DNA of 63,186 nucleotides, counting the filler, from Basidiobolus ranarum (Eukaryota): assembly GCA_040143965.1 (NCBI GenBank). It is 16 parts of 16 records of this genome, joined end to end, with 100 filler letters (N's around TTAATTAATTAA, not from the genome) between each part and the next. Parts side by side here need not be neighbours in the genome. Positions count along the whole stretch, not along the records: positions 55,409 to 59,248 come from JASJQH010009130.1; positions 59,349 to 63,186 come from JASJQH010009131.1; 14 more parts are not named here. One strand, 5' to 3'. The notes below the pieces were generated by a model that had not been told where the DNA came from, ran no database searches, and worked only from the letters and a program-made list of their open reading frames with translations. Positions 13,191 through 63,186 of the stretch are shown piece after piece; position 1 is the stretch's first letter; the number at the start of each line of letters is the position of its first letter. The position numbers and the translations under genes are program-made.

Positions 13191-15781
13191 TGATGAAATT
13201 AGATAAATAGCAACTAATTATATAGTAGTTGGTTTATTCATATTCTGCTTATTCAGCACTTAATTCTGCCATTGTGTTTATTGCTCTAATTGATAGAAAT
13301 ATCAATTAGTTCACTTTTACCAATTTTCACTATTTTCTCAAAACTTCTCCAAATCACCTCAAATTTTCACCCATGCTTAACAGGCATTTTTGTTATGATC
13401 TAAGCATGTCCAATATTCCTGTTTCATTGTAAACTATAAATAGGACATATTGAATTCAATAAAATTTAAGTGTCTAATCACATATTGAAATCTTGACCAA
13501 AACACTTCCAAATCCCCTAGGCACTTTTATCAGTTTAAGAGCCCCAAGGTAGCTGTTAAAGGAATGTCTACCCATACTATTACCAAAGTATTTGCATCCT
13601 CAGAAAACTTGATGATGAAGCCATTCACCTTTGGAAGTTCAAGATGCAAATAGTGCTAGAAGACAAGGACCTTTGAGGATTTGTTACAGGAGAAGAAATA
13701 GAGCTAAAGGGACCACCAGATGCTATCCTTGCATTTCACAAGAAGCAGAGGAAAGCACTCTCTACACTTTGTCTACATCTCAGAGACTCTCAATTGAGGC
13801 ACATACAATCAGCCAAAAATGTCCAAAATGCTTGGGAAACACTTGAAGGACTATATGAGACTAAAAGTCTGGCTAATAGGCTATATCTTAGGCAAAAATT
13901 ATTCTCAATTCAGATAAATTCTGATGATTTGATGCTTAATCATATAAATTGGATAAAAACTATGGCAGCAGTTCTCAACCAATGGAGCACCTCTAAATGA
14001 AGATGATGTAGTCATGACACTACTTGGGAGCCTGCCAGACATGTTTGGCAACCTCATAATTGCTCTAGAATCAAGATCAGAGCCATTAACAATCAAATAT
14101 GTAGGCACTAGGCTACTGAATGAGGAATTAAGAAGGTCTAATTTTCAGCTCAATAGTGCAGAACAGGCATTTATTTGAGCTGTAAAACATCCAACTGGCT
14201 TGAATAATGGTGCCCCTAATAGGAAATCAAACATCTGCAAGTATTGTAAGAAACCAGGCCATAATATCAAAGATCGCAGAAAAAGGATTTTTGCTGTAAA
14301 GCTAAAATTGGACCAAGCAAATTATGTAAGTACTGATAGGGATTGTCTATTTGTGTCTGCCCTATCAGTAACCACTAAAGAAGACTCAGAAACACAGTAC
14401 ATTGATTCAGGAGCTTCCCAGTATATGTCAAACAGGAAAGATTGGCTTTCCAGCTTAAAACCAATCCAAGCAAGGAAAGTCTACTTAGGTTATGACTATG
14501 CACTGAATGCAGTTGGTAAAGCCCCGTTGTGTTCAATTTAGACCAAAATTCAGCTACACCATCTGCAAAATTGGATGGAGTACTCTATGTACCAAATATA
14601 GCTAAGAATCTACTCTCAGTAAGCCAAGCAACAACTGAAGGACTAAAGTTTGTGTCTAGTAAGGCTGGATACACTATCACAGATCAGAATGATACTAAAT
14701 CAGCTACTTTTATCAAAGCTCAAAACTTATACAAGCTGGAAATCAACAAATTGTATTCTTAGCATGCAAACAAGGCTACAATTGGTGAAATAAGCTGTCA
14801 AATGTTGCATAGACAAGGAGGCTTCATTGGGGAACAAAAACTGACCCAAATAATCCAAAATCAGCTTGCTTCAGGCTTAGAAATTGTAAATATCATTAAA
14901 TTGAATCTGTGTGAAGGTTGCTCATATTGAAAACATTGCAGACAGCTGTTTTAAAGCTCTGGAGAGGTCAAATTCACTTAGCATTTTTACCTGTTTATTC
15001 TGACTTAAGTGGGCCCATGAAAAACATATCACTAGGTGGGAAAAGGTACTTTATGTCCTTTATTGATGACAAAACAGGATATACTTAGATATTCTTTCTC
15101 AAATCAACATCTGAAGCTTCAACTACATTCAAGCACTACAAAGCAATGGTGGAGAAAGAATCAGTCCAAAAAATAATGGTACTAAGGAGTGATAATGGTG
15201 GAGAATATGGCTTCAAAGACTTTGCTAATTTTTGTTCTAAACATGGAATAAAGCAGCAAACTACTGTACCTTATACTCCACAGCAAAATGGAGTTGCAGG
15301 ATGTGCTAATGGGACCATAGTGGAGATGGCAAGATAAATGTTACATGAGCAAAAGTTAAATTACCAATATTGAGCTGAATCTGTCTCCCCTGCAGTCTAT
15401 ATCAAAATCAGATGGCTAACATGATTGCTACAAAATGCTGTTCCATTTGAAGCCATATATGGATAAACACCAAGTGTGGATCATCTCAAGATCTTTGGTT
15501 CCACAGCATATAGCCCATTTCCTGCTCAAAAATGCTCTAAATAGGAACCAAAAAGCAGCAAATGCATATTTCTTGGTTACTGTAATGGATCAAAGGCCTA
15601 CAGACTGTTTGATACCAAAAATCAGAAGTTAATCAAGTGCAGCAATTTGATTTTTGATGAAAAAGCAGATTTTTCACCTCAAATCACAGTTCTTGATCCA
15701 GAAAACACATCAGCACTATTCAGGAAGTGTCTGACAAAATTCCAGCTGCATCTGAGCCCTATTCACCCAAAATTACTGTCC
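13191..15781 (+). mobile_element. Ty1/copia family 1, 5' half: 5' LTR 13191-13532, PBS 13533-13544, disrupted gag-protease-integrase
   Basis: UBN2-type gag (AWETLEGLYETKSLANRLYLRQKL), zinc-knuckle remnant CKYCKKPGH, protease IDSGAS, VLYVPNIAKNLLSV, integrase LRSDNGGEY and PYTPQQNG; many stops and frameshifts. Confidence 0.95.
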
Positions 15782-15881: not shown

Positions 15882-18800
15882 TTTGATTATTGAGGAGTGG
15901 AGAGTTCAATCCAATCTTAGCAACCAGATGTTTATTGGTTTTCTTACACTTTTACCACAGTTGATTGGCAACTGTTGCTTGCCACAGACCTGATTCAAGT
16001 GGAAAACACTTGTCAATTGTATGACTTATAATCCTTCCACAATTAAAGTATCTTCATATTCATATGGCTTTTGGCTTTCACCAGTGATCTGAAAAGCCAG
16101 AAGTCATGTACTGTTTCCACACAATTGACAATCACTGAATCATGTGAATATTGTTCTTATTTGGTTCACATACCATTAATTTGCTATCTTAAAGTTTTGA
16201 TGAAATCACCCAAATATAAATCATTGATCCACTATGGAAGTACTAACTATAAAGCTGAGGGTATTACAAATATACTAGATAGATATCACTACCAGAATCT
16301 GAAAAGTCAAGGTTTCTTTGAGCACACATATAATTCTGCATTTGCATTGGCTCTGGATGGTTTCTCACTAAACAAATATACTATTGGAAAAGCTTGTTGG
16401 TTAATAACTTTAATTAACTTGAATTTTCCTCCTTCTGAATGGTATAAGAGTCATATTATTTTGATACTTTCCATCATATCCGGACCTAAATCATCAGCAC
16501 TTATAGATAGCTTGTTGGAGCTGTTGATTGAGGAATTTTCACAGTTGTATAATGGGATTCATATGGTTGAATATTTTTTTAAAGGTAATATCATTGTATG
16601 TATTGGTGACACTCCTCATGCTTCAACATGCTCACCAAAATCAATTCACCCAGTAGTCAGTTTAACATCAAACTTGGGAACAGCTGTAAGCCTAAGATTA
16701 TATTCCTAAAGGGGATAAGCTGGAGCTAGAGCTTCCCATTAGGCACTATGCACTTACTATTCAACAACATTCCAATGCTACTTACCCAGCTATATAGTAG
16801 AAAATTTAATATAAATGCACCAGTTAAGATAGGATCAAAGGTTAATTTGATTAGGAAAATGCTTGAAAATGTGTAGATACCGTCATATTTTACCAGTACT
16901 CCCATCAATATCCACTCTTCTTGGCACTTTTTCAAAAGCAAAGGCAGAATTATTGGATTTGCATTTCTTCAAGTGGAATCTGAAAGAGATTTCTGCCTGA
17001 GTGGCATTGGCAACATGGCAGTTGTTTGTGGATATTGTTAATATATTTTTACAGCATCAACTCACATTGGCAGCTTTTAGGCAGAAACAGCAACTGTGGA
17101 AAGATTTTGTAATTGGATACAAAAAACTTTATTATAGGCTTAAAGAAAATAGACTGAATCTATGACAGTATTCAATACATTCCCTGCTGCATCTTTCACA
17201 ATGCTTAGATTTTATAGGCCCTTGCTATACATGAGAGGATTTCCCAATGGAGTGCACCTATGGTGAAATGATGCTCTGTGTGAAATTGTCAGTATTACTA
17301 TATGCTAGTCTGATTAACAATGTAACAGCAAAATCAGTGATGGACATAATGCAATGGGTTAAGGAGACTCCAAAGAATATTAACTTTCCAACAATGTGCT
17401 CTTCTTAATGTGCTCATGGGTTTTTGCATTGTTTGAGCACAATAACAGCAACAAAACCCAATTTATGGTCTCACAGTAGGTACCTCTATAATTGAGAATA
17501 ATTTGGTTATTGTGATAATCCAACAGTCTTTCTAGGAAAGCTCAAGACAGTCTTTGTGGTGAGATAGATTGAGATATGCAGTATTATTTTTTTAGCCAAG
17601 GGGTATCTATTCAAGCAATCACACATCTACTTGTGGCAGGATATTTGTTGACTGCAAGTGGAGGATACTTTGGCTGAGTTTTTTATCAAAATTTGCTAAA
17701 ATTAATGGAGTTTACTCTATCAGGCATATATGTTTCTAATATTCAAATACAACACTAAACTCCATGATTTTACCATGGGGAGTCCAGTCAGATTTCTACA
17801 TGATCACTGATAGGACTTGACCAAATAGCCATTCTTATATCAAACTTGGTATTAGACATAAGCCTGAGATTATCTTGCTAGATAAGATCAGCTGGAGCCA
17901 GAGTGTCCCATTAGGTAATATGCACTTGCTATTCAAAAATATTCCAATACTGCTTACTCAGCTATATAGTGGATAACTCAGTATGATTGAGCCCTTTGAG
18001 ATAGGATTTAAAGTGTGAATCAATTGGGAAAATGTTTGAAAACATCACAATACCATCATAATTTTCCAGGGCTCCCATCAATATCCACTTGTCTAGGTGT
18101 TTGGTTGAATGCAAAGACTGGAATTATTGGATTTGTATATTTTCAAGTAGAATCTTGAAAAAACTTCTGCCTGACAAGTATTGGCAACATTGGGAGCTGT
18201 TTATGGATATTCTTAATATATTCTATCAGCATCAACTCACATTGGCAATTCACAGGCAGGCACAACTGTTGAAATCAGGAAAATAGCAACTCATTATTTA
18301 GTAGTGAGTTTATTCATATTAAGATAGTTTAGCACTCAATTCTGTCATTTAAAAGTGGGTGTTTATTTCTCTAATTGATAGAAATATCAATGAGATCACT
18401 TTTAACAATTTTCTCTATTTTCTCAAAACTTCTCCAAATTGTCTAAAATGTTTACCCATGCTTTACAGGCATATGTGTTATGATCCAAGCAAATCCAATA
18501 GTTCTATTTCATAGTAAACCATAAAAAGACATACTGAATTCAATAAACTTGAGCATCTAACTCTCAAATCCAAATCTTTTCTAAAACAATTCTTAATACC
18601 CTAAACACTTTTATGAACAACAACTGTTTAAAGACTTTGTAATTGGATATGCAAACTTTGTTACAGGCTTAAAGAAGATAGATTGATTCTACTCTGGTAC
18701 TCAATACATTCCCTGCTGCCTCTTTCACAATGCTTGGAGATTGTAGTCCCTTACTATACATTCTGGGTGTTCCTAATGGAGTACACCTGTGGTGAAGTGA

Positions 18801-23617: not shown

Positions 23618-23708
23618 TGTTGAAATTATTTAGGGAGAAATATTGGTCTGGCCAGGATTTGAACCTGGGGCCTCCTTCACTCTAGCAAGGTGCTCTAACC
23701 ACTGAGCT
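23618..23708 (-). mobile_element. Truncated second copy of the tRNA-containing LTR (tRNA-like part 23644-23708)
   Basis: Reverse complement AGCTCAGTGGTTAGAGCACCTTGCTAGAGTGAAGGAGGCCCCAGGTTCAAATCCTGGCCAGACCAATATTTCTCCCTAAATAATTTCAACA is near-identical to 61927-62017, ends in canonical ...CAACA, and interrupts a gypsy integrase. Confidence 0.88.
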
Positions 23709-25007: not shown

Positions 25008-25400
25008 GTTTAATGACTTTATGATGCCAATCTGATGAATATGGTACAGGCAATATGTAGCATTTATATACAGTTGCAGCACAAGTACTAATGTGGCGGT
25101 TCCTTATCTAGACCGGATACCGAGAAAATAAGAGGCTTTCGGAAGGAAAAATGTTTCATCGAGAAATATCTTGCCTAAAACAAACCTTAGACAAGGCTGA
25201 TTTTTTTTAGGTGGCAACTCACCACATGATTGTTGTCCAGGAACAAAACTCCTAAATAGGCGAACCATGTGGTCTTAACGTATTATCAGCCACTCGACCA
25301 TTCCATTTAGAAGAGAGCATGAACTTTTTCCTTCTATAGCAGTGAACTTTTCCCATATAAAGTCTGCGTTCTTGGTTGCTGACTACACTAAAGTTTTATC
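25008..25400. promoter_or_regulatory. Putative bidirectional promoter (393 bp)
   Basis: Divergent ATGs at 25007 and 25401. TATA-like elements face each gene (about 25063-25070 minus, 25356-25361 plus); inverted pair ACCACATG (25221) / CATGTGGT (25266). Confidence 0.55.
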
Positions 25401-40181: not shown

Positions 40182-42113
40182 TGATGAAAATGTTTATGGA
40201 ATTTAGAAGTGTTTTGGACCAGACTTGAATTTGCAAATATGACACTTAAGTTTCATTGAATTGAATATGTCCTATTCATAGTTTGCTATGAAATAGGACT
40301 ATTGGACATGCTTAGATCATAATAAACATGCTTATTAAGCATGGGCAAATAATTGAGGTGATTTGGGGGAGTTTTGAGTAAATAGTGAAAATTTGTAAAA
40401 GTAACTTAGTTGATATTTGTATCAATTAGAGAAAAATAACCACACATTTTGGAATGTCAGAACTCAGCACTACCATAATCAAAATATGAATAAACTAACT
40501 ACCAAATAATGAGTTGCCATTTACCTCATTTCAACGTTGCCACTCATGTAAATATTTTGTATCACTCTTAAACCTTACCCATATCTTAATAATTCAAATT
40601 GTGCTTTGGCTAATAGTTTGGTTATGAAGTCAGCATTTATTTCTTCTTTAAGGCAATTGACAAGTTCAATTTTATTATCCACTTTTGCTTCTATAACAAA
40701 TGATGTCTAATGTTAACATGTTTTGTTCTAGCATGAAATGTAGGGTTTTTAACTTAGGAAGTACCACTTTGATCATCTTCAAATACAGTAATAGCATGTT
40801 TTGCCTTGTATCCTAAGTCTGTCAGTGACTTCCTTACCCACAAAGTGTCTTGTGTAGTAGCAGTGGTAGCCATGTACTCTGCTTCTGCAGTGGAAAGTGC
40901 TACACTTGGTTGCTTCTCTCTATTCCAAGTTATGGCTCAATTACAAAAGAAAAAAGAGTACCAATTGTTGATCTTCTATCATCAAGGCTTCTTCCCCAGT
41001 CTGCATCACTGTAGCTTTCAAGATTATGTGCATCAGTAGTGGTGGAGTATATCAGAACTAGACTTGCAGTTCCTCTGAAATACCTGAATAATTGTTTTAC
41101 TGCAATTTTGTACTCAGATCCTGGATTTTTGAGATATTGGTTGACAGTTCCTACTGCCACAGCAATGTCTGGACAAGATTCAACCATTGTATCCATTAAA
41201 CTACCCATGTGTGATGCAGAGAGTACATCATCCAATTTGCAGATGTTGTACTGGATTTGGTCAAAGTTGAGGATAACTGTGCCCTTACTGACCACATCAA
41301 GTGCATAATCATAGAATGATAGCTGATTTGCCATGGCTTGGATCTAATTTGAATATTTGGACATAGAATGACAAGAATTCATCTGAACTAAAATCAATTT
41401 TCATCTAAGATACAGCCCATTAACTAGACTGTTACTCTAATAGAGTCCCTCAAGTGTTTTCCTGGCCTTTTGGAAAATTTTGGTACAGTGTATGAGCCTG
41501 AATTCAGAGTCCTTGATATGTAGACCAAGTGTTAACATTGCTCTCCCCTGCTTCTTGCAAAAGGCAAGGATGGCTTTGGGTGGTCTCTTTGGCTCTATTT
41601 CTTCTCATGTAATCAATCCCCACAGTTACTTCTCTTCCAGCACCATTAATTTCTTGGCCTTTCAAAGGTGAAAGTCTTCACCATCAGACTTCTTTGTGTA
41701 GGCATAATTGTGAATAGTCATACTGGTAGAGATTCTTTCAACAGCTAGCTTAGGGCTCATATCCTAATCAAAGTGTCTAGGGGATTTGGAAGGTCTTTTG
41801 ACAAAATTTGGATTTGTTATTAGGCACTTGAGTTTATTCAACTGAATGTATCTTGTTAATAGTTTACTTTGAAATAATACTATTGGACATGCTTAGATTG
41901 TAACCAACCTGCCTGTAAAGCACAGGTGAAAACTTGAGGTGATTTGGAGATGTTTTGAGAAAATAGTGAAAATTGGTAAAGGTGATCTGGTTGATATTTC
42001 TTTCATTTAGAGCAATACACACACAATTTGAATAGCAGAATTGACTGCTAGGTAATCAGAATATCAATAAACTAACTACCAAATAGTGAGTTGGTATTTA
42101 CCTAATTTCAACA
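40182..42113 (-). mobile_element. Internally deleted copia family 1 element with both LTRs (5' 41765-42113, 3' 40182-40536)
   Basis: PBS GGATATGAGCCC after the 5' LTR, gag start, a protease-region piece fused directly to RT C-terminus/RNase H, then PPT. No matching TSD. Confidence 0.85.
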
Positions 42114-43573: not shown

Positions 43574-44873
43574 AATAAACACTTAAGTTTTATTGAATTG
43601 AATATGTCCTAGTTATAGTTTACTGTGAAATAGGATTATTAGACAAGTTGAGATCATAACAAGCATGTCTGTTAAGCATAGGCCAAAATTGGAGGTGACT
43701 TGGAGAGGTTTTGAGAAAGTAGCAAAAGTTGGTAAAAGTGATGTAATTGAGATTTTGATCAATTATAGCAATAACCACACATTTTTAAATGGCAGAATTG
43801 AGTGCTAAATATTGAGAATATGAATAAATTAACTACCAAACAATGAGCTGCTATATACCTAATTTCAATTGACAAGTGTTTCCCACTTGTACCAGGTATG
43901 TGGCAAGCAACAGTTGTCATTCAACTGTGGTATAGTTGTAAGAAAATCTAAAAACCTGGTTGCTAAGATTGGATTAAACTCTCCACTCCTCAACAATTAA
44001 AGCTGCTTCCCTTAAAGCAAGTGTTGCATGCAGAGTAATGCTTGCCAATGAGAAAGAGTCCATAATAAAACCATTGCATTCTTCTTCATCTTTTTCTGAT
44101 GTACAGCCATTAGTACCAGATTAACCAAGGTAAACATCTAGCAGCATGAGCTCAAACATCAGCAAGAACTGAGAACTTAATTGATTAGCAGTCCAGCTAT
44201 CCAATCTCTACTTTGGAAGGCATTAACACACCTGGAACTAACTCAAGTAACAATGAAGCATTAATCAACTAACCAGATGTTCTCCTGTTAAAGCAAAAGT
44301 GAAAGTTAAGTGATTACAATTCCCCACTGACATAGTAAATCAATACTGGAGCAAAGTTCAACAAAAAACCAATCAGATCTTCTACTTCCAATATGCCTAC
44401 TTTGCCAACTATTGAATACAAATCTGTAGACAATTTGGATAGAATTGTTAAAACCAGGGAGTATCAGGCAGTACACTGCATGATTTGTATGCACTCATAA
44501 GCACAAACTATGAAGTAGCTATTCAGGCAATGACAAGCAGTGGCACCACAATATTGCACTTAATGCAGCATTCTGAAGCATCAAGTCAACAGTTAGGGAG
44601 TCACTAAACAATGATACAAGACCATCAAATGCTGCACTTGAGCTACAGTAACATACTGCTCTCTCCATCTATTCACATATGGGATTTTGATCTATCCCAC
44701 ACCATACATATACCCATCACCATGATAATCCAGCGGAGGGCAGTATGTGCTGGATCATTAAGCCTCCACATTGATAAAAATATGCTTGGGCATATGCAAG
44801 TAGAAATCTAGTAAGAAAACCAGTAAACCAGGAGACTGTGAATGTCAGAGCTACTGTCACTTGCTCTGAAAGT
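43574..44873. mobile_element. Partial copia-1 LTR (43574-43868, minus) followed by a CMC fragment joining the transposase 5' region (minus) to ORF2 (plus)
   Basis: 43869-44000 is the reverse complement of 15882-16020; 44040-44160 is the reverse complement of about 52955-53075; 44160-44870 matches ORF2. Confidence 0.8.
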
Positions 44874-47422
44874 TGATAAAAGTGTTTAGGGGATTTTGAA
44901 GTGTCTTGGACAAGATTTGGATTTGTGAATTAGACACTTAGGTTTTATTGAATTTAATAAGTCCTATTTATAGCTTACTATTGAAATAGGACTATTGGAT
45001 GTGCTTAGATCAGAATAAACATTCCTGTTAAGCATGGGTGAAAATTTGTGGTGATTTAGAGAAGTTTTGAGAAAATAGTGAAAATTGGTAAAAGTGATCT
45101 AGTTGATAGAAATATCAATTAGAGCAATGAACACACATTTTTGAATGACAGAATTGAGTGCTAAATAATCAGAATATGAATAAACAAACTACTAAATAAT
45201 GGGTTGTTATTTACCTAATTTCAACATTCCCACTCAACTAATTATTTTGTATTTCTCTTAAACCTAACTTATATCTTAATATTTCATATTGCACTTTAGC
45301 TAAAGGCTTGGTTAAGATATCAGCTATCATTTCTTAGGTAGGGCAATAGACAAGTTCAATTATATCATTCTCTGCAGCATTTCTAACAAAATGATGCCTA
45401 ATATCTATGTGTTTTGTTCTAACATGAAATATGGGGTTTTTAGCTAATGCAATACAACTTTGATTATCTTCAAACACAGTAATCACACATTTTTGCATAT
45501 ATCCTGAGTCTGTAAATAACTTACTAAACCACATAGCTTCTTGTGTAGCTACAGAAGCAGCCATATACTCTGCTTCTGTCATGGAAAGTACTATGGTAGG
45601 TTGCTTATGACTATTCCAAGTTATGGCTGCATTACCATAGACAAAAGCATACCCAGTTGCTGATCTTCTATCATCAAGGTTTCTTCCCCAGTCTGCATCA
45701 CTGTTACCTTCAAAATTTTGTGCATCAGGAGTGGCAGAGTATTCCAGAACTAGATCTACAGTTCCTCTCAAATACCTGAATATTTGTTTTACTGCAGCTT
45801 TGTGCTCAGATCATGGACGTTTGAGGTATTGGCTGACAGTTCCCACTGCCACAGCAATGTCTGTGTGTGTTCCAACCATTGTATACTTAAACAACCAACC
45901 ATGGACTGCTAAGGGAACTCCTGGCTTTCATTTGAGTCATTTTGGGCCAAATTGAATGAAATTTTAATCAACTTCAAATTGGGATCCATTGGTGTTGATG
46001 CAGGCTTGCTATTCACTATGTTGAAGCATTTTAGGATGTCTAGGATATATCCAGACTGTTTCAGCATGATTTTTGGGTTAGGTTTATCTATCTTGATTTG
46101 GATTCCAAGAAAATAACTTAATTCACCCATATCAGTCATCTGAAATTGGTTTGATAAGCCGCTTTTTTTCTGATTAAGTGCTTCTAGATCACATGTGGCT
46201 ATGATTAAGTCTTCCACATATAGTGCCAAGATAAGAATTCTATTTCCAGTTGTTTTAATGTTAATACTGTGATCTGCTGTGCATTTTTGGAATTCCAGAG
46301 ATTCCAAATAGTTATCTATCTTGTTGTACCATGCCCTGGTTGCTTGCTTGAGTAAATAGAGCAATTTTTGCAGTTTACGGACCATATCAGGATGTTTGGG
46401 GTTAACAAATCCGTCTAGTTATTCCATATAGATCTCTTCTTTTGGATTTCCATTCAGAAAGGCTGTTTTTACATTATTTGATTTAGATCAAGGTTATGGA
46501 TGGCTGAGAGTGCCAAGATTGATCTAATGGAGCTAAACTTAGCTACTGGAGCAAAGGTTTCATCCAAATCGACTCCTGGAGTCTGGGAATAGCCTTTGGC
46601 AACTAATCCTGCTTTTTACCTTTCAATGGTTCCATCAGCTTGGTTTTTGACTTTATAGACCCATTTGCAACCTATTAGCTTTCCCCCTGATGGAAAACGA
46701 CCTAAAACCCTTGTTTTATTGTCCTGAAGGGAAGAAAACTCATCTGACGTTGCTTTTTCCCACAATTTTGATTCTGGACTCTCCAGTGCGTCATCTAAAG
46801 TCTGTGGCTTGTCACAGAGTGCTGCATAAGCATATACATCATCATGGAAAGTGTTCCACCAGTTTCTGGGCATATTTCTCCTTTTGGATGATTTTCTAGG
46901 TCCTGAATCTTCCTTTGATGTAATTGGGACTGAAAATATGGTTGAACAGGGCTCAGATACAGCTGGAATTTTGTCAGACACTTTGTGAATAGTGCTGATT
47001 GTGCTTTCCAGATCAAGAACTTTGATTTGAGGTGAAAAATTTGCTTTTTCATCAACAATCACATCTCTGCACTTAATTCACTTCTGATTTTTGGCATCAA
47101 CAGGCTGTAGGCCTTTGATCCAACACAGTAACAAAGAAATATGCATCCACTGCTTTTGGGTTCCAATATTGAGCTTTTTTGAGACGGAATTAGGCAATGT
47201 GCTGTGCAACCAAAGATCCTGATATGATCTACACTTGGTTTTGATCCATATAGGGCTTCCAATGGAGTAGAATTTTGTAGCATTCTTGTTGGGCATCTGT
47301 TTTTGATATAGGCCGCAGTGGAGACAGATTCAGCCTAATATTGGTAATCTAACTTTTGAACATGTAACATTGATCTTGCCATCTCCACTATGGTCCTATT
47401 AGCACGTTCTGCAACTCCATTT
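44874..47422 (-). mobile_element. Ty1/copia family 1, integrase-RT-RNase H, PPT and 3' LTR (44874-45226); best-preserved copy
   Basis: NGVAERANRTIVEMAR, IGCKWVYKVK, SDADWG, EDNQSCIALAKNP, KHIDIRHHFVR. Confidence 0.95.
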
Positions 47423-47522: not shown

Positions 47523-50147
47523 TTCAGATGGGTGAATATTTTATGAAAGCTAATATCATTGTTTGTATTGGTGACACCCCTGCCATCAGTAATGTTGGAG
47601 GTTTTTGCAGGCACAATGCACTATCTTGCTGTATATTTTGTCAAATCAATGGAGTTTACTCTATCAGGCATATGCATTACTACTATCCAAATACAACACT
47701 AAACTCCATAATTTTACCATCAAGAGACTGGTCATATTTCAACATGATCTTTGATATCAATTCACTAAATAGTCAGTCTAACATCAAACTTGATATTAGC
47801 CATAGGCCCAAGATCATATTGCTAAAGGGGATCAGCTGGAGTCAGAGCTTCCCATTAGTCACTATGCACTTACTATTCAACAACATTCCAATACTACTTA
47901 CTCAGCTATATAGTAGAAAATTTAATATGAATGAGCCATATGAGATAGGATGAAAGTTTGAGTTGATTGGAAAAATGCTTGAGAGCATCAAGATACCATC
48001 ATATTTTACCAGGACTCCCATTAATGTTCCCTTATCTAGCATTTATTCAAATGCAAGAACTGGAAATATTGGATTTGTATATATTCAAGTTGAACTTTGA
48101 AAAGATTGCTGCCTGATAAGTAGTGGCAACATTGGGAGTTGTTTCTTAGATTGTTAATATATTCTTATAACATCAACTCATGTCGGCAGATCTCAGGCAG
48201 ATACAGCATCTGTGCAAAGCTTTTGTAATTGGATATGAAGAACTTTATTACAGGTTTAAAGAAGATAGACTGAATCTATGCCAGCATTCAATACATTCCC
48301 TGCTGCATCTTTCATAATGCTAAGAGATTATAGGCCCTTGGTATACATTCTGGGAGTTCCCAATGGTGCACACCTGTGATGAAACAATGCTCCATGTGAA
48401 ATTGTGAGTATTACCATATGCTAATCTGACTAACAATGTATCAGCACAAACAGTGATGGATGTTATGTGATGGGTCAAGGAGACTCCAGAGTATGTTAAC
48501 CTTCCAATAAAGGGCTCTTTTCAATGTGCTCATCAGTTTTTGCATTGTTAGAGCACAATAGCAGCAAGAATGCCCAATCCATGGTCAAAGAGTAAGTACC
48601 TCTATAATTTGGACGAATTTGTTTGTGTAATAATCTGAAAGTATTTTAGGAAAGTTGCAAGACAGATTTCTTGAGAGATAGCTCAAGATACACAGTATTA
48701 TTGTTTTAACCATGGGGTAATCTATTCAAGCTTTAACATATCTACTTGTGGCAGGACATTTGTTGACTGTTAGTTGGGTATATATTGGCTGAATTCTTTA
48801 CACAAATTGGCCAAAATTCAAGAACTTATTCTCATTGTGAATGGTGACAAGAGTTAGCTATTTGCCAAGTGTCAGTGCTATTCAAAATTTCAGATGTGTA
48901 GCAATTTTTCCACCATTAGTTTGCTGGTAAAGCATATTGATATTGTTGGGTTATGTCTAATCAGTCAAGTATGTGCATATATAGAGACTAAACACAACAA
49001 AATTCTTGTAATTTTTGATTCTCATTATGGCTGGAATACAAAGCCTAAATTAACTAAATAAAGGCATGAATATTAATTCAAATTCCTACAGCAGTAAACC
49101 CAGCAATTTGCCATTTGAAATTTAGATATTTGAAAGAATTGCCAGATATTGAATAACACATGCCAAATTTCAGGATCAAAAATTTAACATGTATGTATAC
49201 CATCAAAATACTGTCAAGAAACTGCCATCACACCATCAAAAACCCTGGCAGAATGCAAGCCACTAATATTGTGATGGTTTTGCTATTTTGGAGGGTGGAT
49301 CCAATCCAGATCAAATTGATTTTATTTTTGTTAGGGCTTGCAGGCCAATAATTTAATTAACTTAAATCTTCCTCCTTCTGAATGGTATAAGAGTTATAAT
49401 ATTTTGACACTATCCAGCATATCAGGACATAAATCATCAATGCTTATAGATAGCTGGTTGGTGCCTTTGATTGTGGAATTTGAATGATAATCAAATAGCT
49501 TCAGATGAGTGAACATCTTTCAAAGCTATATCTTTGTATGAATTGGTGCCACTCCTGCCATCAGTTAACTTGGGGGTTTTTGTGCTCACAATGCAATATC
49601 TTGCTATAGAAATTATCAAATTAATGGAGTTAACTCTATCAGGCATACACATTACTGCTGTCCAAATACAATACTGAACTCCATGATTTTACCATCAAGA
49701 GCCCTGTCATATTTCAGCATGCTCACTGATATCAATTCAGCAAATAGTCAGTCAAACATCAAACTTGTGATTAGCTGTAAGCCTAAGATTATATTGCTCA
49801 AGGGGATCAGCTGGAGCCAGAGCTTCCCAATAGGCATATGCACTTACTATTCAACAACATTATACTACTACTGACTCAGTGGAAAATTCAACATGAATGA
49901 GCCATTTGAGATAGGAACAAAGTTTGAATCAGTTGGGAAAAGGCTTGGAAATGTCAAGATACAATCAAATTTTACTGGGACTCCCATCAATATACTTATC
50001 TAGGTGTTTATTCAAATGCAAAGACTGGAAGTATCGGATTTGTATATATTCAAGTGGAATCCTGAAAAGTTCTTGGCCTGATAAGTAGTGACTACATTAG
50101 GAGTTGCTTGTGGTTATTGTTAATATATTCATACAGCCTCAACTCAT
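47523..50147 (+). mobile_element. CMC transposase 3' two-thirds and right terminus (TTTGTTAGGG, 49336), followed by a second transposase fragment
   Basis: GDTPAISNVGGFCRHNALSCCIFCQING, MHLLFNNI, DUF4218-like HSLLHL...GP...WEFPM. Confidence 0.87.
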
Positions 50148-50594
50148 TGTAATGATTCTGATCTTGGCATAGATATCCACTGTGATTGGGACTCTTCTAC
50201 TATTAGAGTATGACATCACATCTGCTGTGCCATCCTTACTTGGCAATCTTATGCTAGTACAGCCAGGTTACCTTGTGAGAAAGTTATTTTCTTTGCAATA
50301 TTCATGAAACCTAACCAATCATGTCATCCCACAAAAATTATACTTCTGCCAAGACCTTCTATGCAAGGTCACCTGACAGCATTGCTACGCACTGGCTGAT
50401 TGACTTATTTCCACCTCAAGTTCATGTCTTTACCATTCCACAATTTCTATTTTATTACCCTTATTTGACTTACCCATATTTTCTATCCAATCATATCACA
50501 CCATTAGTATTATCCCTTATTATTTGAGATTTATCAGTATTAACTAACACTAGTCCCATTATTTTCTTGAAAAATTCTACAATATTCTGAAACA

Positions 50595-51366
50595 TTTTGA
50601 AATTAGATAAATAGCTACTCGTTATTTAGTAGTTAGTTTATTCATATTCTAATTATTTAGCACTCAAATCTGCCATTCAAAAACATGCATTTATTGCTCT
50701 AATTGATAGATATATCAATTACATCACTTCCAATCATTTTCACTATTTCCTCAAAACTTCTGCAAATCACCTCAAATTTTCACCCTTAGTTATGATATCC
50801 TAACAGAAATTTGAGGATTGTTATTGTAGGAAAACCATCACAATTTTAATCCATTTGGGATTGACCATTTACTTACCATCATAAAACTGTCAAGTTAGAT
50901 TTGATTTTAATCAATTTTTTAGTTTCGGAGTGAAATTTCAAGATCTTGCAAGATAGTTGTGCATGGTTGGCTAAAATCTCAGAGAATTATGGATCAACAC
51001 ATGTGCGAAAAACATAACTCAAATTTTGCACAATTACCACTTGAATGCTAATTTGTCATCTTTGAAATCCCTAGTCTCTTTGATATATTCTCCTGAATAT
51101 TTCTATAGACTTCTTCATACCCAAGGTTTAGCTCATACCCAACACAAGTGTGTGTCAATATCTCCATCAAAGCCCACCATTGTATTAATGTTGCTTAATC
51201 AACATTCTTTCAGCTATCTGGCAGATACCCTGCAATATTGTGCCACTCTACATTCAGTTCTTCCCAGATAACTGCATGGGCTACACCAGACTGAATGTCA
51301 AGTAAAATGTTCTTCATCTGACGCCACTTTCTGCATACTTGCACTGCGTTTTACCCTTCATACTTT
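50595..51366 (+). mobile_element. Partial copia-1 LTR (about 50595-50786) followed by a CMC left terminus (TCCTAACAGAAATTTGAGG at 50798)
   Basis: Matches 56071-56260 and the reverse complement of 36130-36700. Confidence 0.8.
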
Positions 51367-53102: not shown

Positions 53103-55308
53103 TGATAAAAGTGTTTAGGGGATTTGGAGGTGTTTTGGCCAAGATTTGATTTGTGAATTAGACACTTAAGTTATAATGAATTGAATATGACATATATATA
53201 GTTTACTAAGAAATAGGACTATAGGACATGCTCAGATCATAACGAACATGCCTGTTAAGCATGGGTGAAAATTTGAGGTAATTTGGAGAAGTTTTGAGAA
53301 AATAGTGAAAATTGGTCAAAGTGATCCAATTGATAATTCTATCAATTAGAGCAATAAACACACATTTTTGAATGACAGAAATGAGTGTAAATAATCAAAT
53401 ATGAATAAACTAACTACTAAATAATTAGTTGCTATTTACCCAATTTCATTATTCCCACTCAACTAATGATTTTGTATTACCCTTAACCCTAACTTGTATC
53501 TGGAAAATTCAAAATGTGCTTTAGCTAAAGGTTTGGTTAAGATATCAGCAATCATTTCTTCAGTAGGGCAATTGACAAGTTCAATGATATCAATCTTTAT
53601 TGCCTTCTAACAAAATGATGCCTAATATCTATATGTTTTGCTCTAGCATGAATTTTTGGGTTTTTAGCTAACAAAATACAACTTTGATTATCTTCAAATA
53701 CAGTAATAGCATGTTTTTGCATGTATCCTAAGCTGTGAGTACCTTTCTTAACCACATAGCTTCTTGTGTAGTAGCAGAAGCAGCCATATACTCTGCTTCT
53801 GTAGTGGAAAAGGGCTATGGTTGCTTGCTTCTATAGTTGAAAGTGCTATGGATGGTTGCTTCACACTATTCCAAGTTATGACTCCATAACCATAGAGAAA
53901 AGTGTACCTAGTTGTTGATCTTCTAGCATCAAGGTTTCTTCCCCAGTCTGCATCACTGTGGCCTTCAAAATTTTGTGCATCAGGAGTGGCAGAGTAAACC
54001 AGAATTAGATCTACAGTTCCTCTCAAATACCTGTATGTTCATTTTACTACAGTTTTGTGCTCCAATCCTGGATTTTTGAGACATTGGCTGACAGTTCCCA
54101 CTGCCACAGCATTGTCTGGGCATGTTCCAACCATTATATACATTAAAATACCCACCATGGATTGCTAAGAGAACTCCTGGCTTTGCTTTGAGTCAATTTT
54201 GGCCAAATCACCTGATATTTTAATTGATTTCTCATTAGGATCCATTTGTGTTGATACAGGATTGTTATTTTCCATGTTGAAGCGTTTTAGGATATCTAGA
54301 ATGTATCTAGACTGATTTAGCATGAATTTCTGATTGGTGTTATCTCTCTTGATTGGGATTCCATGAAAATAACTTAATTCACCCGTATCAGTCATCTGAA
54401 ATTGGTTTGGTAAGCTGCTTTTGTCTGATTAAGTGCTTCTATTTCATTTGTGGCTATGATTAAGTCATTCAAATATAGTGCCAAAATAAGGATCCTATTT
54501 CTGGTTGCTTTGATGTAAATACTGTGGTCTGCTGTGCACTTTTGGAATTCCAGAGATTCTAAATAGGTATCTATCTTGTTGTACCATGCTCTGGGTGCTT
54601 GCTTGAGTCCATACACCAATTTTTGCAGTTTACAGACCATGTCAGGATGTTTGGGTCTACCAATCCATCTGGTTGCTCCATATAGATCTCTTCTAGAGTT
54701 TCATTCAGAAAGGCTGTTTTTACTTCCATTTGATGTAGATCCAGGCTATGGATGGCTGAGAGTACCCATATGAATCCAATGGAGCTAAACGTAGCTACTG
54801 TAGCAAAGGTTTCATTAAAATCAATTCCTGGTGACTGGGAATAACCTTTTGCAACTAATCTTGCTTTGTACCTTCCTATGGTTCCATCAGCATAGTTTTT
54901 GACTTTGTAGACCCATTTGCAACCTATTGGCTTTTGCCTGATGGAAGAGGACTTAAGCCCACGTTTGATTGTCCTAAAGTGAAGAAAACTTGTATGACAT
55001 TGATTTTCCCCTAATTGTGATTGTGGACACTCCAGAGCTTGATCTAGAGTCTGTGGCTTGTCATCAAATGCTGCATAAGCATATACATTATCATTGAAGG
55101 TGTTCTACCAGTTTCCTAGCTTATTTTTTCTTCTGGATGATCTTCTGGGTCCTGAATCATTCTTTGTTATAAAGGTAACTGGAATTTTGGTTGAATAAGG
55201 CTCAGATACAGCTGGAATTTTGTCAGACACTTCCTGAATAGTGCTGATTGTGTTTTCTGGATCAAGAACTGTGATTTGAGGTGAAAAATTTGCTTTTTCA
55301 TCAAAAAT
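53103..55308 (-). mobile_element. Ty1/copia family 1, RT-RNase H, PPT and 3' LTR (53103-53451)
   Basis: YGLKQAPRAWY, LYLNDL, SDADWGRNLD; short local duplication at about 53795-53860. Confidence 0.93.
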
Positions 55309-55408: not shown

Positions 55409-56422
55409 AATGTATACAATGGTTGGAACACATCCAGACATTGCTGTGGCAGTGAGAACTGTCAGCCAATATCTCTAAAATCCAGGATCTGAGCACAAAA
55501 TTGCAGTAAAAAAAATATTCAGGTATTTGAGAGGAACTATAGATCTAGTTCTGGAATACTCTGCAACTCCTGATGCACAAAATTTGAAGGTTATAGTGCT
55601 GCAGAATGGGGAAGAAACCTTGATCATAGAAGATCAACAACTGGATACACTTTTTTCTATGGTAATCGAGCCATAACTTGCAATAGTAAGAAGCAACCAA
55701 CTGTAGCACTTTCCGCTACAGAAGCAGAGTATATGGCTGCCTCTGCTACTACACAAGAAGCTATGTGGTTGAGGAAGTTATTTACAGACTTAGGACACAT
55801 GCGAAAACATGCTATTCCTCTGCTTGATGATAATCAAAGTTGTATTTTATTAGCTAAAAATCTTACATTTCATGCTAGAACAAAACATATAGATATCAGG
55901 CATCATTCTGTTAGAGAAGCAATAGAGAATTATATGATTGAACTTGTCTATTGCCCTACTGAAGAAATGATAGCTGATATCTTAACTAAACCTTTAGCTA
56001 AAGCACAATTTGAACTATTAAGATACAAGTTGGGTTTAAGAGAAATACAAAATAATCCATTGAGTGTGAATGTTGAAATTAGGTAAATAGCAACTCATTA
56101 TTTAGTAGTTAGCTTATTCATATTCTGATTATTTAGTACTCAATTCTGTTATTCAAAAACATGTGTTTTTTGCTCTAATTGACAGAAATATCATTTGGAT
56201 CACTTTTACCAATTTTCACTATTTTCTCAAAACTTCTCCAAATCACCTCAAATTTTCACCCATGCTTGACAGGCATGTTTATTATGATCTAAGCACATCC
56301 AATAGTCCTATTTCTTAGTAAACTATGAATAGGACTTATTCAATTCAATAAAACTTAAGTGTCTAATTCACAAATCCAAATCTTGTCCAAAACACTTCCA
56401 AATCCCCTAAACACTTTTATCA
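55409..56422 (+). mobile_element. Ty1/copia family 1, RNase H, PPT and complete 3' LTR (56071-56422, 352 bp, TGTTG...TATCA)
   Basis: ARTKHIDIRHH, EEMIADILTKPL; TGAGTGTGAA precedes TGTTGAAATT. Confidence 0.95.
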
Positions 56423-59160: not shown

Positions 59161-61735
59161 GTGGTTATTTTTGTTCTTGTAGATCTATAGAGCAAGCTTT
59201 AGGGCAGTGAGTTAGGAGCGTAGCAGATTTTTCTTGTCAAAGATATATNNNNNNNNNNNNNNNNNNNNNNNNNNNNNNNNNNNNNNNNNNNNTTAATTAA
59301 TTAANNNNNNNNNNNNNNNNNNNNNNNNNNNNNNNNNNNNNNNNNNNNGTGTTAGGTTCGATTAATAATCCCCAAACAGAAATGATCAAATTTCCATTTT
59401 CAGCCCATCAATCTATAACTAATTGGTCCTTCCATTCGTAACCTTTCATTCACTACCTATTATTCGCTATCATTCATTCGCTACCTTCCATTTGCTATTG
59501 TGCTTAGAAAGCAAGTTGGAGCAGATATTCGACGAAAAGTGGTTTGTTTTGCTATTCAAATGTCACGCAACCTCAACTTCCATCTAGGCATGCCATCAAA
59601 ATCATCCTTTGACTATTTAGGACGCTTGATAGAAAATCACATTGCTTTTCTCACTTGCCTTGTCATCGGGATGGTGCAGGAGTGCTTCGCTGGATGTTTA
59701 CATGAAAATCCTGCTTGCATAATAGAAGAGAGCGGATTCTAACCCTAAGCAGTGCGATAAAACCTAATTCAGTTTGGCGTTAGTGTTTCTATATCACCAT
59801 TGTTTTGAGTATTTTCCGCTCTCTTCTAAAAGGCCGATTTGTTTGCATTGAAACTTTTGGCGGGGTTCCACTTGCATTCTGATAACTATCTCCAGAAGTG
59901 TGCAATTATTTGTATTATCGTCGTGTATTTGTAATTTTGGTGTGAATTTCCAGTGACAGTCCGTTTGTAGTGGTAGATTTTACTAAATTAGCTGTACGCT
60001 AGTGAGTTTTGGGAAACTCCCATTTCAAGCTTAATGTTATCTTAATCATTCATACCGCATTCTATCAATGCTTGTGCTGGTACCAGACATTTGTCCCGTT
60101 TCATTTGCTACCTAATCTCCCAGTCTTGTGGACTTACCCTAACCCTAACCACAGTCTAGATTCAATAACTCCCCGAACTTAACCAGTGACTCGATGTCTC
60201 TTTTCTGCAGCATCAAGAACTTCCAGGTTGCTGAGATGATGGCGTATCTGGACTATATAGTAATGGCGGTGGATGTTTTATGTTTTTCATGGACAATGTG
60301 ATAACCGCCTCTAGATTGGAAGCCTTTATCTCACCTTGGCGACTCTGAATGCTCTAACTATGATTACTAAAGCTGGAATGATCGCTGATAAGATGTTACC
60401 AGGTGGAACTAATTATGGTAGATCTTTCTGTTCAAGTGATTCAAACTGTTCTGGATCTACTTGTACTTCTACCAGTAAGAAAGCTACTCCTTGAAGATAT
60501 ACTAAACAGAGCAATTATCCAGGCTAATGGGAGGTTCACGAGATTAACAATAGTTTACGTCGTAAACCATATTACAACAGTAAGCACAATAGTGATATAT
60601 TGCTCCGCGGCATAAGTTTAGGTTGAGTCAGGGAGGATGAGAAGCACTAAGTGGTGTGAACTTCACTTAGCTTAAATATTAATCCAAACAAAGCGACATT
60701 TCGGACAGTAATCTCCAAACATAGGGTGGCAGGATAGGATTGTACTCACTGAGGGGAGGAGGATGCAAAGCACCAATAAGGTATGACTTGATTAAATATA
60801 ATCACAAAGTGCCAGAAATAATATCTTATTAAAATAGGCTCTGTTACTTCGGAGTCAAAAATTGAAAAGTAGATTTAGTCTCTATCCATATACACTTTGT
60901 ATACCTTAGTAAGGGTTAGGGCTAGGAATCACTTATTTTTTCTTTGATTTCAATGAAATCATCAATGCATCGAGTCTATAGATTAATATAAGGGTAAATC
61001 GCCAACTCAGTGTTCTAAGCTTGATATACCGGTCTATGCATTTAAATATACATATACTAATAGGCATACATATGTAAGTATTAAACAACTATGCTAAGAA
61101 CACTTGGCTTACTCTTCACTTTGGCATTGCTTGTTTACGTATTAGTCGCCGCTCCTTCTATTGAACACATTTTATTCTTAATCCTGATCTATTACTCAAT
61201 AAGGCAATCATATTCCAAGCGTATTTCATTAAAAGCTTGTTTAGAACTGGAAGTATCCTCACCTATTTTATTGTTAGGAGCTAGCTATTTCGTTTTACAG
61301 AAGAACATAGCAGCTTTGGATGCCTTTTTGCCAGTACAAAAGAATTTTTGCTTCATGAAAATGGTTTCTGTGATACAGTGCGCGGGAGGGAGGGTGCCAG
61401 AATCTTATATTAGCAAACAACTGCTAGTAATGCTAAATTGAGTGAGGCAATAGAATATTCCATTTTCAGGAATAACTCCACATACTCCTTGGAGTCATTA
61501 AGATTTTGTTACTGCTTCAGGGTAGGGGGGTGAAAAGCACCAGGTGGTGTGGACTTTATTTAGCTTACATACCAATCTAAGCAAAGTGACAATCAAGACA
61601 TCAATCTTCCAAGATATTGTGATAATACAGGATCATATCCATACTTAACTTGATGACCAACATAATCAAGTTCTGAGGATGTAAATATAGTGCTAATAGG
61701 CAAAGGTGGTATGCAGAAAGGAAGGTACTCAGTAC

Positions 61736-62017
61736 TGTTGAAAGTCTGGTGACTTGTGGTACAAGCAGTAATTCCCAAAGAGGAAAGTATGGAGTATGGT
61801 GACTGCATCTGAACACAAAGCCTAAGGCCAATCAGTTGCTTGTATAGCTGAAATGCCAAAGTACCATACATTGACAGACTAGGTTAAGGTTCCCTAGCAA
61901 TATAGGCATAGCATACAAGGACTGGTAGCTCAGTGATTAGAGCACCTTGCTAGAGTGAATGAGGTCCCAGGTTCAAATCCTGGCCAGACCAATATTTCTC
62001 CCTAAATAATTTCAATT
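61736..62017 (+). mobile_element. 282-bp solo LTR with a 5-bp TSD (AGTAC) carrying an embedded tRNA-like cassette
   Basis: AGTAC (61731-61735) TGTTGAAAG ... AATTTCAATT AGTAC (62018-62022). The terminal CA is TT here but intact in the copy at 23618. Confidence 0.85.
61919..61991 (+). tRNA. tRNA-like sequence (pseudo-tRNA, nominal anticodon AGA) inside the LTR
   Basis: 73 nt: GGACTGG TA GCTC AGTGATTA GAGC A CCTTG CTAGAGT GAATG AGGTC CCAGG TTCAAAT CCTGG CCAGACC A. Perfect D and T stems, 6 of 7 acceptor pairs, A and B boxes; imperfect anticodon stem and short variable loop. Confidence 0.75.
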
Positions 62018-62299
62018 AGTACAAACTAAATGGACAATAGAACAAAACCTTGGAATAATAGGGACCAAGAAAGGAGTCTTGGAGGCAAGGTATTGCTTCC
62101 AAATATTTAGCTGGAAGTCTATAGCAACAATATTAGGCTTTTGTGTTTCACACAGTAGTAAAAATAATTTGGAAACAACAGAGTCATCTTGTATAAGTTT
62201 CTGCATGACAATGGATTTGATGAAGGTGCTGCAAGTGTTGTGCACCAATATTCAAAGTTGTTTAACATACACCACATCTATACAACCTGCCTGAATATC

Positions 62300-63186
62300 T
62301 GTTTAGTTTATCACTATTGCTAACTAGTCACCTGACCTTATCCAGTAACTTTATCATGTGACCTATCACATGATTAACTATCTATTTTCTTATCCCTTCT
62401 ATCAGATCATATGACCTATCACATGATCCTTATCCAATCAGGATTAACTGCTGAGTCATCTGCCTAGACACAAGTCAATATGAGTCACAAGATTCATAAC
62501 CAATGATCTTTCTCTGCTAAGACTTCAGCTGATGCATGACTCACTTATCTATCTATCTATCAATCCAATCACATTTTCTTTTATCAGAATTAGTCATCTA
62601 ATATCTTGGTGCTGACTAATTCACTTTGCTATCAAAAAGTATAAATAAAGCTAACTGAACCTTTTTGTTTAGTGTGTGTCTTAACAAATATAGGATCTTA
62701 ACATCTCTCAGTATTTCTCAACAAATTCAATATTCCCCTCTCATTTTTATCCAAGCCTAGTATCCATTAGCATCTACAGAACACCAAGCCTAGCTGCCTA
62801 GCAAACATACTCTCTACCATAACATAGCAATCCACTGCTATTCCCTAGACATATATTAGTTAGATCTGCTCTGCTGATATATCCTGCTTAAATAGTTTTA
62901 AGATTCTGCACTTGACTGTTTCTTAGGTTTGGTAAAGTTCAAGACTTTTTATCCACTTTTCTCTTGGACACAACATTTTTTTCATTGAATTCTATTACAC
63001 TCAACCATCAATCCAACACGGCCTTACCTACCAGTACTGTAAGCCTCAACATTTTTGATGATGCCAGAGCAGCCTATGAGAACATATCCCAACAACTCAG
63101 GCAACTTATGTCTGAGAAAGATGCACATGTTTTGGAGTACACTTCCCTTCTTCAATCAAGAGCTGATGAAGAGCAAAGACAAGACC
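62300..63186 (+). mobile_element. Possible LTR plus the start of a gag-like ORF (open about 62985 to window end) of another retroelement
   Basis: CpG-depleted, repeated (G)TCAC/GTGAC motifs like the segment at about 50150-50560, AATAAA, ...TTAACA at 62703; coiled-coil-like DDARAAYENISQQLRQLMSEK. No diagnostic motif. Confidence 0.35.

Follow-up and report, generated by a model that had tools for sequence, protein, structure and literature searches.

Here, we describe a 282-bp unit in Basidiobolus ranarum that is very probably the solo LTR of a Helenus-type element, with a tRNA-like cloverleaf near its 3' end. The window, i.e., the whole stretch of DNA that was analysed, comprises 63,186 nucleotides in 16 contigs of ~3.85 kb each with N spacers between them. 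We favor this identity because the layout of the unit matches that of published fungal Helenus LTRs point by point. The kind of element is already known, and the Basidiobolus family adds no new mechanism. Helenus was described in 2024 in rust fungi and mushrooms (Kojima 2024, Biology 13:119, PMC10886601), and the initial annotation of this DNA, which pointed to tRNA-bearing TRIMs of that name, including in fungi, was correct on this point. In the sections of that paper on the fungal families, Helenus has a tRNA-like sequence in the LTR, a 5-bp target-site duplication, frequent solo LTRs and a tRNA that is mostly nonfunctional; the consensus LTRs in its supplement start with TGTTGAA and have a tRNA-like piece close to their 3' end, a pyrimidine-rich tail and a CA end. 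The unit described here has the TGTTGAA start, a tRNA-like piece close to the LTR 3' end in which the A and B boxes are conserved, the pyrimidine-rich tail, the CA end (in its second copy), a 5-bp duplication, an ill-fitting anticodon and the solo state. Moreover, its length lies inside the published range, in which the longest LTR given is 323 bp.

The 282-bp unit and its second copy

The features are listed in Table 1. The unit (copy 1) begins with TGTTGAAA at 61736 and has TTTCAATT at its right end. As first annotated, it is bounded by AGTAC on both sides and has a cloverleaf ending 26 bp from its right end; coordinates and sequence agree on each of these points. Only two features, the terminal motif and the duplication, set the left boundary, and the right boundary was set where the likeness to copy 2 stops. 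The 5-bp duplication is present in the only copy with both flanks visible (1/1). In a chance control, 7 of the 52,066 anchors in the window had the 5-mer that follows them repeated, together with TGTTGAAA, 100-600 bp upstream; among the anchors preceded by TTTCAA, 1 of 44 fitted this pattern, and that one is the real end at 62017. The last two bases of copy 1 are TT, where copy 2 has the terminal CA, and from this comparison we read the 3' terminus of copy 1 as a mutated CA. The CpG count in 61736-62017 is zero. Solo, CpG-free and mutated at its 3' terminus, copy 1 is a dead relic. No Pfam domain was found in the DNA hosting it, using ORFs and six read-through frames.

Table 1. Positions of the tRNA-bearing LTR, its parts and the local copia LTRs in the window
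Feature	Position	Strand	Basis or remark
Target-site duplication, left copy, AGTAC	61731..61735	.	Read directly
Probable solo LTR, tRNA-bearing, Helenus-type, 282 bp	61736..62017	+	Read directly; right edge via copy 2
Upstream 183 bp of LTR	61736..61918	+	Read directly; U3 label putative
tRNA-like cloverleaf, 73 nt	61919..61991	+	ARAGORN; Rfam RF00005 with alignment
Pyrimidine-rich 26-nt tail and LTR 3' terminus (R end/U5-like)	61992..62017	+	
Target-site duplication, right copy, AGTAC	62018..62022	.	Read directly
Second partial copy (copy 2), tRNA-like positions 9-73 and tail	23618..23708	-	BLAST, Rfam
copia 5' LTR, example, ends TTTTATCA	13191..13549	+	Followed by PBS-like GTTTAAGAGCCCCA, then gag
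Solo copia LTR, TGTTGAAA...TTTTATGA, 5-bp duplication ACAAC	18267..18616	+	

Copy 2 carries the same tRNA and tail and terminates in canonical TTTCAACA at 23618, as the initial annotation had it with its CAACA end. It is 96.6% identical to copy 1 over 89 nt (BLAST, 23620-23708), and the likeness ceases exactly at its CA end. At 23708, it is cut by the contig end, which corresponds to tRNA position 9; because of this cut, only copy 1 shows the 183 bp of the LTR that lie upstream. The two copies lie on different contigs with unrelated flanks, as expected for an interspersed multi-copy family. Neither blastn with word size 7 nor Rfam at E<=1 detected further diverged copies in the whole window, and exact-word scans of metagenome contigs with family-specific cloverleaf and tail words gave 0 matches each. 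Within the window, we found no two-LTR copy, PBS or PPT of the tRNA-bearing element. The gypsy integrase that had been annotated around copy 2 was not recovered, as this DNA matched no Pfam family in ORFs and X-read-through frames and had no meaningful PDB match; the resemblance to gypsy integrase motifs is by eye only. The contig of copy 2 and the contig at 1-3872 have a repeat in common (88% over 162 bp). The latter contig encodes a malic enzyme that is 91% identical to that of Basidiobolus meristosporus, and the next named relatives are ~63% identical.

The tRNA-like module and the nature of the element

Over the whole window, ARAGORN predicts one tRNA, the cloverleaf of copy 1, with an AGA anticodon. 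This cloverleaf scores 49.8 bits against the Rfam tRNA model (gathering score 29), and copy 2 scores 36.5-42.4 bits. In the Rfam alignment, the D stem, the T stem, the A box and the B box of copy 1 are intact, and the same is the case in the visible part of copy 2. Two non-standard pairs are located in the anticodon stem of copy 1 and one in its acceptor stem. The anticodon stem of copy 2 is barely broken because it has one bad pair only; hence, the earlier description of conserved D and T stems and boxes with a broken anticodon stem in both copies holds for the conserved parts, and for the anticodon stem it is an overstatement in copy 2. The nominal AGA anticodon sits on a body with a short variable loop, a mismatch already noted in the initial annotation and found again with both the Rfam alignment and ARAGORN. 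AGA is a serine anticodon, and cytosolic tRNA-Ser has a long variable arm. Because anticodon and body disagree, the tRNA-like piece is unlikely to function as a decoding tRNA. With this disagreement, two mispaired positions in the anticodon stem and another in the acceptor stem, copy 1 resembles fungal Helenus, the tRNA of which is mostly nonfunctional. Searched over its full length with Rfam at E<=1, the window gave no 5S rRNA; besides both tRNA matches, there was a single Plastid-ycf2 match below threshold, which we rejected, as its score is 28.6 bits versus a gathering score of 65.7 and it coincides with the cloverleaf on the opposite strand (61919-61992).

Like tRNA-derived SINEs (SINE2), the family is dispersed and decayed with the A and B boxes kept, and what both copies show is only the tRNA-like piece and the 26-nt tail, copy 2 being cut. 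If the family were such a SINE or a dispersed tRNA pseudogene, TGTTGAAA and AGTAC 183 bp upstream would be coincidental, and the rarity of the combined duplication and terminus pattern among the chance anchors speaks against this. In addition, SINE2 elements have the tRNA head at the 5' end and an A-rich or simple-repeat tail, whereas the Basidiobolus unit has TG...CA ends, a fixed 5-bp duplication and its module 183 bp from the left end, no A run or simple repeat follows, and the likeness between copies stops at an LTR-type CAACA, 26 nt past the tRNA. The duplication enclosing the upstream 183 bp was checked in copy 1, copy 2 being cut there, and no direct repeat flanks 61919-62017 itself. 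Unlike the LINE-driven SINE2, the element would be mobilized by an LTR-element integrase. Altogether, we regard a SINE or pseudogene origin as extremely improbable. Slightly less remote, yet still quite improbable, is that an ordinary protein-coding LTR retrotransposon, i.e., an autonomous or large element rather than a miniature one, has a tRNA-derived stretch in its LTR. Of this family, LTRs and no internal region are seen in the window, and according to Results 3.1 of PMC10886601, a fair number of Repbase LTRs hold tRNA-like sequence, with only some of these being TRIMs. However, this LTR is attached to no TE body in the window, whether copia or other, and with its 282 bp and its layout it agrees with published Helenus LTRs. 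We also rejected a MITE or other DNA transposon, since an LTR accounts better for the TG...CA ends with a 5-bp duplication and for the close agreement with the layout of Helenus LTRs. This rejection leans on the known duplication lengths among transposon superfamilies.

With a Helenus-type LTR as the preferred identity, the element would be a TRIM, small and non-autonomous; non-autonomy is argued by analogy because the window has no internal region of this family. Copy 1 would then have been left by LTR-LTR recombination of a small Helenus-type (TRIMp3) retrotransposon of Basidiobolus, the integration of which would have made the AGTAC duplication, most likely via a Ty1/copia integrase. Cassandra, a plant TRIM, and Ajax of nemerteans are likewise non-autonomous LTR elements and have a Pol III promoter module of small-RNA-gene origin within the LTR, as outlined in PMC10886601; unlike their 5S rRNA-derived modules, the module here is tRNA-like, and the host kingdom differs.

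Whether the tRNA-like piece acts as an internal type-2 RNA polymerase III promoter is, in our judgment, evenly balanced. The initial annotation proposed such a promoter, or a TFIIIC-type boundary, that would help the element to be transcribed in silenced chromatin; the support for either role is confined to the conserved A and B boxes. If transcription started near 61919, then 61736-61918 would be U3 and the tRNA-like piece would be the start of R. The T runs in the 26-nt tail reach TTT only, while many published Helenus families have TTTT, and transcription would continue across a 5' LTR of this kind into the internal region. Because no T run of at least four follows the tRNA-like piece, there is no evident point of Pol III termination by which R could be defined. 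Reverse transcription and integration of the element RNA may then depend on copia proteins provided in trans. We consider it unlikely, though worth serious consideration, that the LTR is of the Helenus type and is transcribed by Pol II from the TATA-like ATATAG at 61900-61905, with the cloverleaf serving as a leader RNA module (stabilizing or packaging the RNA, or letting it escape processing) or as a TFIIIC-bound chromatin boundary. This motif lies 14-19 nt upstream of the cloverleaf, where it may direct a Pol II start, and it fits such a start that no T run of at least four would end a Pol III transcript and that, according to Discussion 4.1 of PMC10886601, no experiment has yet demonstrated that Helenus uses Pol III. 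On the other hand, both copies have kept their A and B boxes and their D and T stems best, and the anticodon stem is decaying, Results 3.5 of the same paper reports this very pattern across Helenus families, and Cassandra, the 5S analogue, is reported there to be transcribed from its own Pol III promoter.

The local copia family as candidate helper

A copia family with LTRs of ~350 bp is present in at least 10 copies in the window. Among the eight LTRs with both ends seen, five start with TGTTGAA, four of them with TGTTGAAA. The body that follows the LTR at 13191..13549 contains gag and RT domains; identity between the copia RT and its nearest relatives does not exceed 59%, and those relatives that are named come from plants and oomycetes. 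The PBS of this local copia is of the GGTTATGAGCCC type, at 13536 and 41764. A search of the whole window for the Helenus/copia-type PBS motif with at most three mismatches gave six matches versus 3.1 expected; only the match at 41751-41764 follows a copia 5' LTR, and none of the six adjoins the tRNA-bearing LTR. Aligned in register, the terminal 21 bases at the 3' end of the tRNA-bearing LTR and those of the copia LTRs agree at 14-15 of 21 positions, which ranks among the best 45 of ~123,000 words. The initial annotation held that the ends of the tRNA-bearing LTR match those of the local copia. This is true for the TGTTGAAA start; the overall terminal likeness is partial because the copia 3' end is TTTTATCA and not the TTTCAACA of the tRNA-bearing family. 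Judged from these termini, it is plausible that the local copia family is the helper of the tRNA-bearing element, because the two have a common 5' motif, a 5-bp duplication and a similar 3' end. The helper proposed in the initial annotation is consistent with the TGTTGAAA starts, the duplication length and the in-register 3' ends. In its part on fungal Helenus, PMC10886601 likewise infers copia-type helpers.

Relation to Helenus of Basidiomycota and host range

The supplement of PMC10886601 contains 200-odd consensus sequences, with which we compared the family by word searches and by eye only. Examples of the closest published elements are Helenus-1_AmAr of Amylostereum areolatum and the Helenus-4-type families of Puccinia, Cronartium and Melampsora. 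With families of Melampsora, Cronartium and Puccinia, the Basidiobolus family has 13- to 17-nt words from the T-arm region in common. With Helenus-1_AmAr, the cloverleaf agrees at ~58 of 74 positions, as counted in a by-eye alignment and not by a tool. The LTR of this Agaricomycete family also has the TGTTGAAA start and the TTTCAACA end, the latter seen here in copy 2; TTTCAACA ends occur at three places in the supplement text. Furthermore, the 'gactgg...' acceptor start, a T-arm word and a similar pyrimidine-rich tail are common to the Basidiobolus family and Helenus of Basidiomycota. The word search found no counterpart of the U3 part among the supplement consensus sequences. Unlike the published families, the Basidiobolus family is known from LTRs alone, with no internal portion, PBS or PPT seen in the window.

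The clearest difference lies in the host. All published fungal Helenus hosts are Basidiomycota (Pucciniales and three Agaricomycetes), while Basidiobolus is an early-diverging fungus outside Dikarya; neither Basidiobolus nor Zoopagomycota or Mucoromycota appear in the main text or supplement of PMC10886601. A reading that would fit the sequence likeness described above, and that we judge rather improbable, is that the Basidiobolus family is a true relative of Basidiomycota Helenus and not an independent invention. If it were a true relative, fungal Helenus would be far older than the ~130 million years proposed for Pucciniales and would predate the split between Dikarya and early-diverging fungi; or else it would have moved horizontally between distant fungi, together with its copia helper. 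For genome annotation, the finding implies that the numbers of 'tRNA-Ser(AGA)' genes given by tRNA predictors for Basidiobolus assemblies will be too high, as was the case in rust fungi. Moreover, with the Helenus-type identity that we favor, the host range of tRNA-bearing LTR elements (Helenus/TRIMp3) would widen from Basidiomycota to an early-diverging fungus, which is relevant to the question of a single or a repeated origin of such elements.

A solo LTR carrying a tRNA-like cloverleaf

We found that the complete LTR unit (copy 1) opens with TGTTGAAA and closes with TTTCAATT, spans 282 bp, is immediately flanked on both sides by AGTAC, a 5-bp duplication, and has its right terminus 26 bp past the end of a tRNA-like cloverleaf. 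This layout had been proposed in the initial annotation and is borne out by direct reading, ARAGORN, and Rfam. By blastn, no second LTR was found within the copy 1 contig, and no PBS-like sequence follows 62017; copy 1, a single LTR flanked by a 5-bp duplication, is a solo LTR. It is also a dead copy, and its 3′ CA is mutated to TT. In a chance control, each window position was treated as a mock right end, and its next 5-mer together with TGTTGAAA was required 100-600 bp upstream. This combination occurred at 7 of 52,066 anchors and at only one of the 44 anchors preceded by TTTCAA, namely, the real right end of copy 1. Because it is so rare, the left boundary is well supported, with the left 183 bp of the LTR being known from copy 1 only.

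Using the Rfam tRNA model, the cloverleaf of copy 1 scored 49.8 bits (gathering score, 29). Pairing is preserved in the D and T stems, with two non-standard pairs in the anticodon stem and a single A-A mismatch in the acceptor stem. The antisense strand gave a sub-threshold match to the Rfam Plastid-ycf2 5′UTR model (28.6 bits; gathering score, 65.7), which we attribute to a tRNA-like shape in the model itself rather than to a plastid element.

A second copy with the same tRNA and tail, also suggested previously, holds up at 96.6% identity over 89 nt. This partial LTR (copy 2) is truncated by the contig end at tRNA position 9 and terminates in TTTCAACA, exactly where similarity to copy 1 ceases. 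Because unrelated sequence and not a PBS comes next in its own orientation, copy 2 is a solo or 3′ LTR. The claim that the anticodon stem is broken in both copies stands for copy 1 but hardly for copy 2, which has one non-standard pair only. Beyond these two, neither further LTR copies nor tRNA-like relics were found in the window (blastn, word size 7; Rfam, E ≤ 1).

Coordinates of the features in the window
Feature	Position	Strand	Basis or remark
Copy 1, LTR	61736-62017	+	
tRNA-like gene, anticodon AGA	61919-61991	+	ARAGORN, sole prediction in the whole window
Plastid-ycf2 5′UTR match	61919-61992	-	Rfam, sub-threshold
Copy 2, partial LTR	23620-23708	-	
copia LTR copies	13191-13535, 18267-18616, 37312-37708, 40182-40533, 41767-42113, 44873-45226, 53103-53449, 56071-56422, and fragments		LTRs of ∼350 bp
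copia RT fragment	38735-39307	-	
CACTA/EnSpm-type transposase fragments	16047-16706, 47525-47950	+, +	Pfam Transposase_21
Divergent ORFs, both with DUF3472	24195-25103, 25392-26510	-, +	
Malic-enzyme ORF, intronless	722-2503	+	

Relation to Helenus and a candidate copia helper

Helenus elements are miniature LTR retrotransposons in which each LTR carries a tRNA-derived sequence (Kojima 2024, PMC10886601). The fungal members have 5-bp duplications and frequent solo LTRs, and their tRNA-like parts are mostly non-functional with conserved A and B boxes (PMC10886601). In the available part of the supplement, Helenus consensus LTRs share the layout of copy 1, i.e., a TGTTGAA start, a tRNA-like piece near the 3′ end, a pyrimidine-rich tail, and a CA end. 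The same text contains the variable-loop/T-arm 13-mer of the window at seven places, the T-arm 17-mer at two (both Cronartium families), TTTCAACA at three, and TGTTGAAA at 10; words from the U3 part and tail of copy 1 gave no matches there. An Amylostereum family likewise opens with TGTTGAAA and closes with TTTCAACA, and its cloverleaf agrees with that of copy 1 at ∼58 of 74 positions in a by-eye alignment of the printed text. The AGA prediction is the same miscall as in rust genomes, where inflated counts of predicted "tRNA-Ser-AGA" are really Helenus LTRs (PMC10886601). Altogether, the observation of a tRNA-bearing LTR is confirmed, and the element most likely belongs to an already known class, Helenus/TRIMp3.

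copia elements are the probable helpers of fungal Helenus (PMC10886601). We counted at least 10 occurrences in the window of a copia family whose LTRs are ∼350 bp long; the LTR copies are 72-88% alike, and gag and RT domains are present. Five of the eight copies with both ends printed start with TGTTGAA, four of these with TGTTGAAA, and the ends are mostly TTTTATCA or a one-base variant. The proposed match to the ends of the tRNA-bearing LTR thus holds as a likeness but not as an identity (TTTTATCA versus TTTCAACA): the last 21 bases of copy 1, aligned in register with copia 3′ ends, agree with them at 14-15 positions, which ranks among the best 45 of ∼123,000 window words. The solo copia LTR at 18267-18616 has a 5-bp duplication, ACAAC. 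Given the similar ends and this duplication, we consider the earlier suggestion that the copia family is the helper reasonable. Two copia 5′ LTRs are followed by a PBS-like GG(T/A)TA(T/A)GAGCCC, which resembles the opening word of many Helenus internal portions in the available supplement (PMC10886601). In the protein collection searched, the copia RT fragment lacks close relatives: its best match has 59% identity, and the named matches are plants and oomycetes, with no fungi.

Proposed transcription

That the A and B boxes persist as the anticodon stem decays points to selection for promoter activity rather than for decoding, and the Helenus paper reads the conserved boxes likewise (PMC10886601). 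From this pattern, we infer a Pol III promoter role for the tRNA-like piece, as is also inferred for the published Helenus elements. A type 2 Pol III promoter would place the transcription start just upstream of the A box and, consequently, the U3/R border near 61919, with a very short U5. It is also possible that transcription starts by Pol II, as a TATA-like ATATAG lies 14-19 nt upstream of the cloverleaf. After the cloverleaf, T runs do not exceed TTT, and the interval 61900-62100 lacks any stretch of at least four T; thus, we propose that, with a Pol III start, the 5′ LTR would be read through and that its transcript would continue into the internal region.

Genomic setting and host lineage

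The 63,186-base window consists of 16 contigs of ∼3.85 kb each, separated by N spacers. Their CpG observed/expected ratios are bimodal, with 0.6-0.7 in host-gene contigs versus 0.03-0.09 in transposon-debris contigs; this pattern fits a methylation-driven CpG decay limited to repeats. The regime can switch within one contig: in that of copy 1, the first 2.1 kb have normal CpG and there is none from ∼61449 to 62948. Therefore, copy 1 sits in a CpG-free block of non-coding DNA, in which Pfam searches of ORFs and of six read-through frames found no domain. The CACTA/EnSpm-type fragments lie in CpG-free contigs, and the contigs at 15882-19746 and 47523-51366 have long repeats in common.

The malic-enzyme protein is 91% identical to one from Basidiobolus meristosporus; identity falls to ∼63% for the named relatives ranking next, which are all early-diverging fungi. 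B. meristosporus has at least four close paralogues (83-91%). The end of the malic-enzyme contig and the copy 2 contig have a repeat in common (88% over 162 bp), which connects the transposon-rich contigs with that organism; for the copy 1 contig, the only links to the others are the common LTR family and the same assembly. In the available literature on TRIMp3 or Basidiobolus LTR retrotransposons, we found no report of tRNA-bearing LTR elements in Basidiobolus. The fungal Helenus hosts are all Basidiomycota (PMC10886601), and Basidiobolus, Zoopagomycota, and Mucoromycota are absent from the available text and supplement of that paper. What is new here is thus the fungal lineage that hosts this Helenus-type element.
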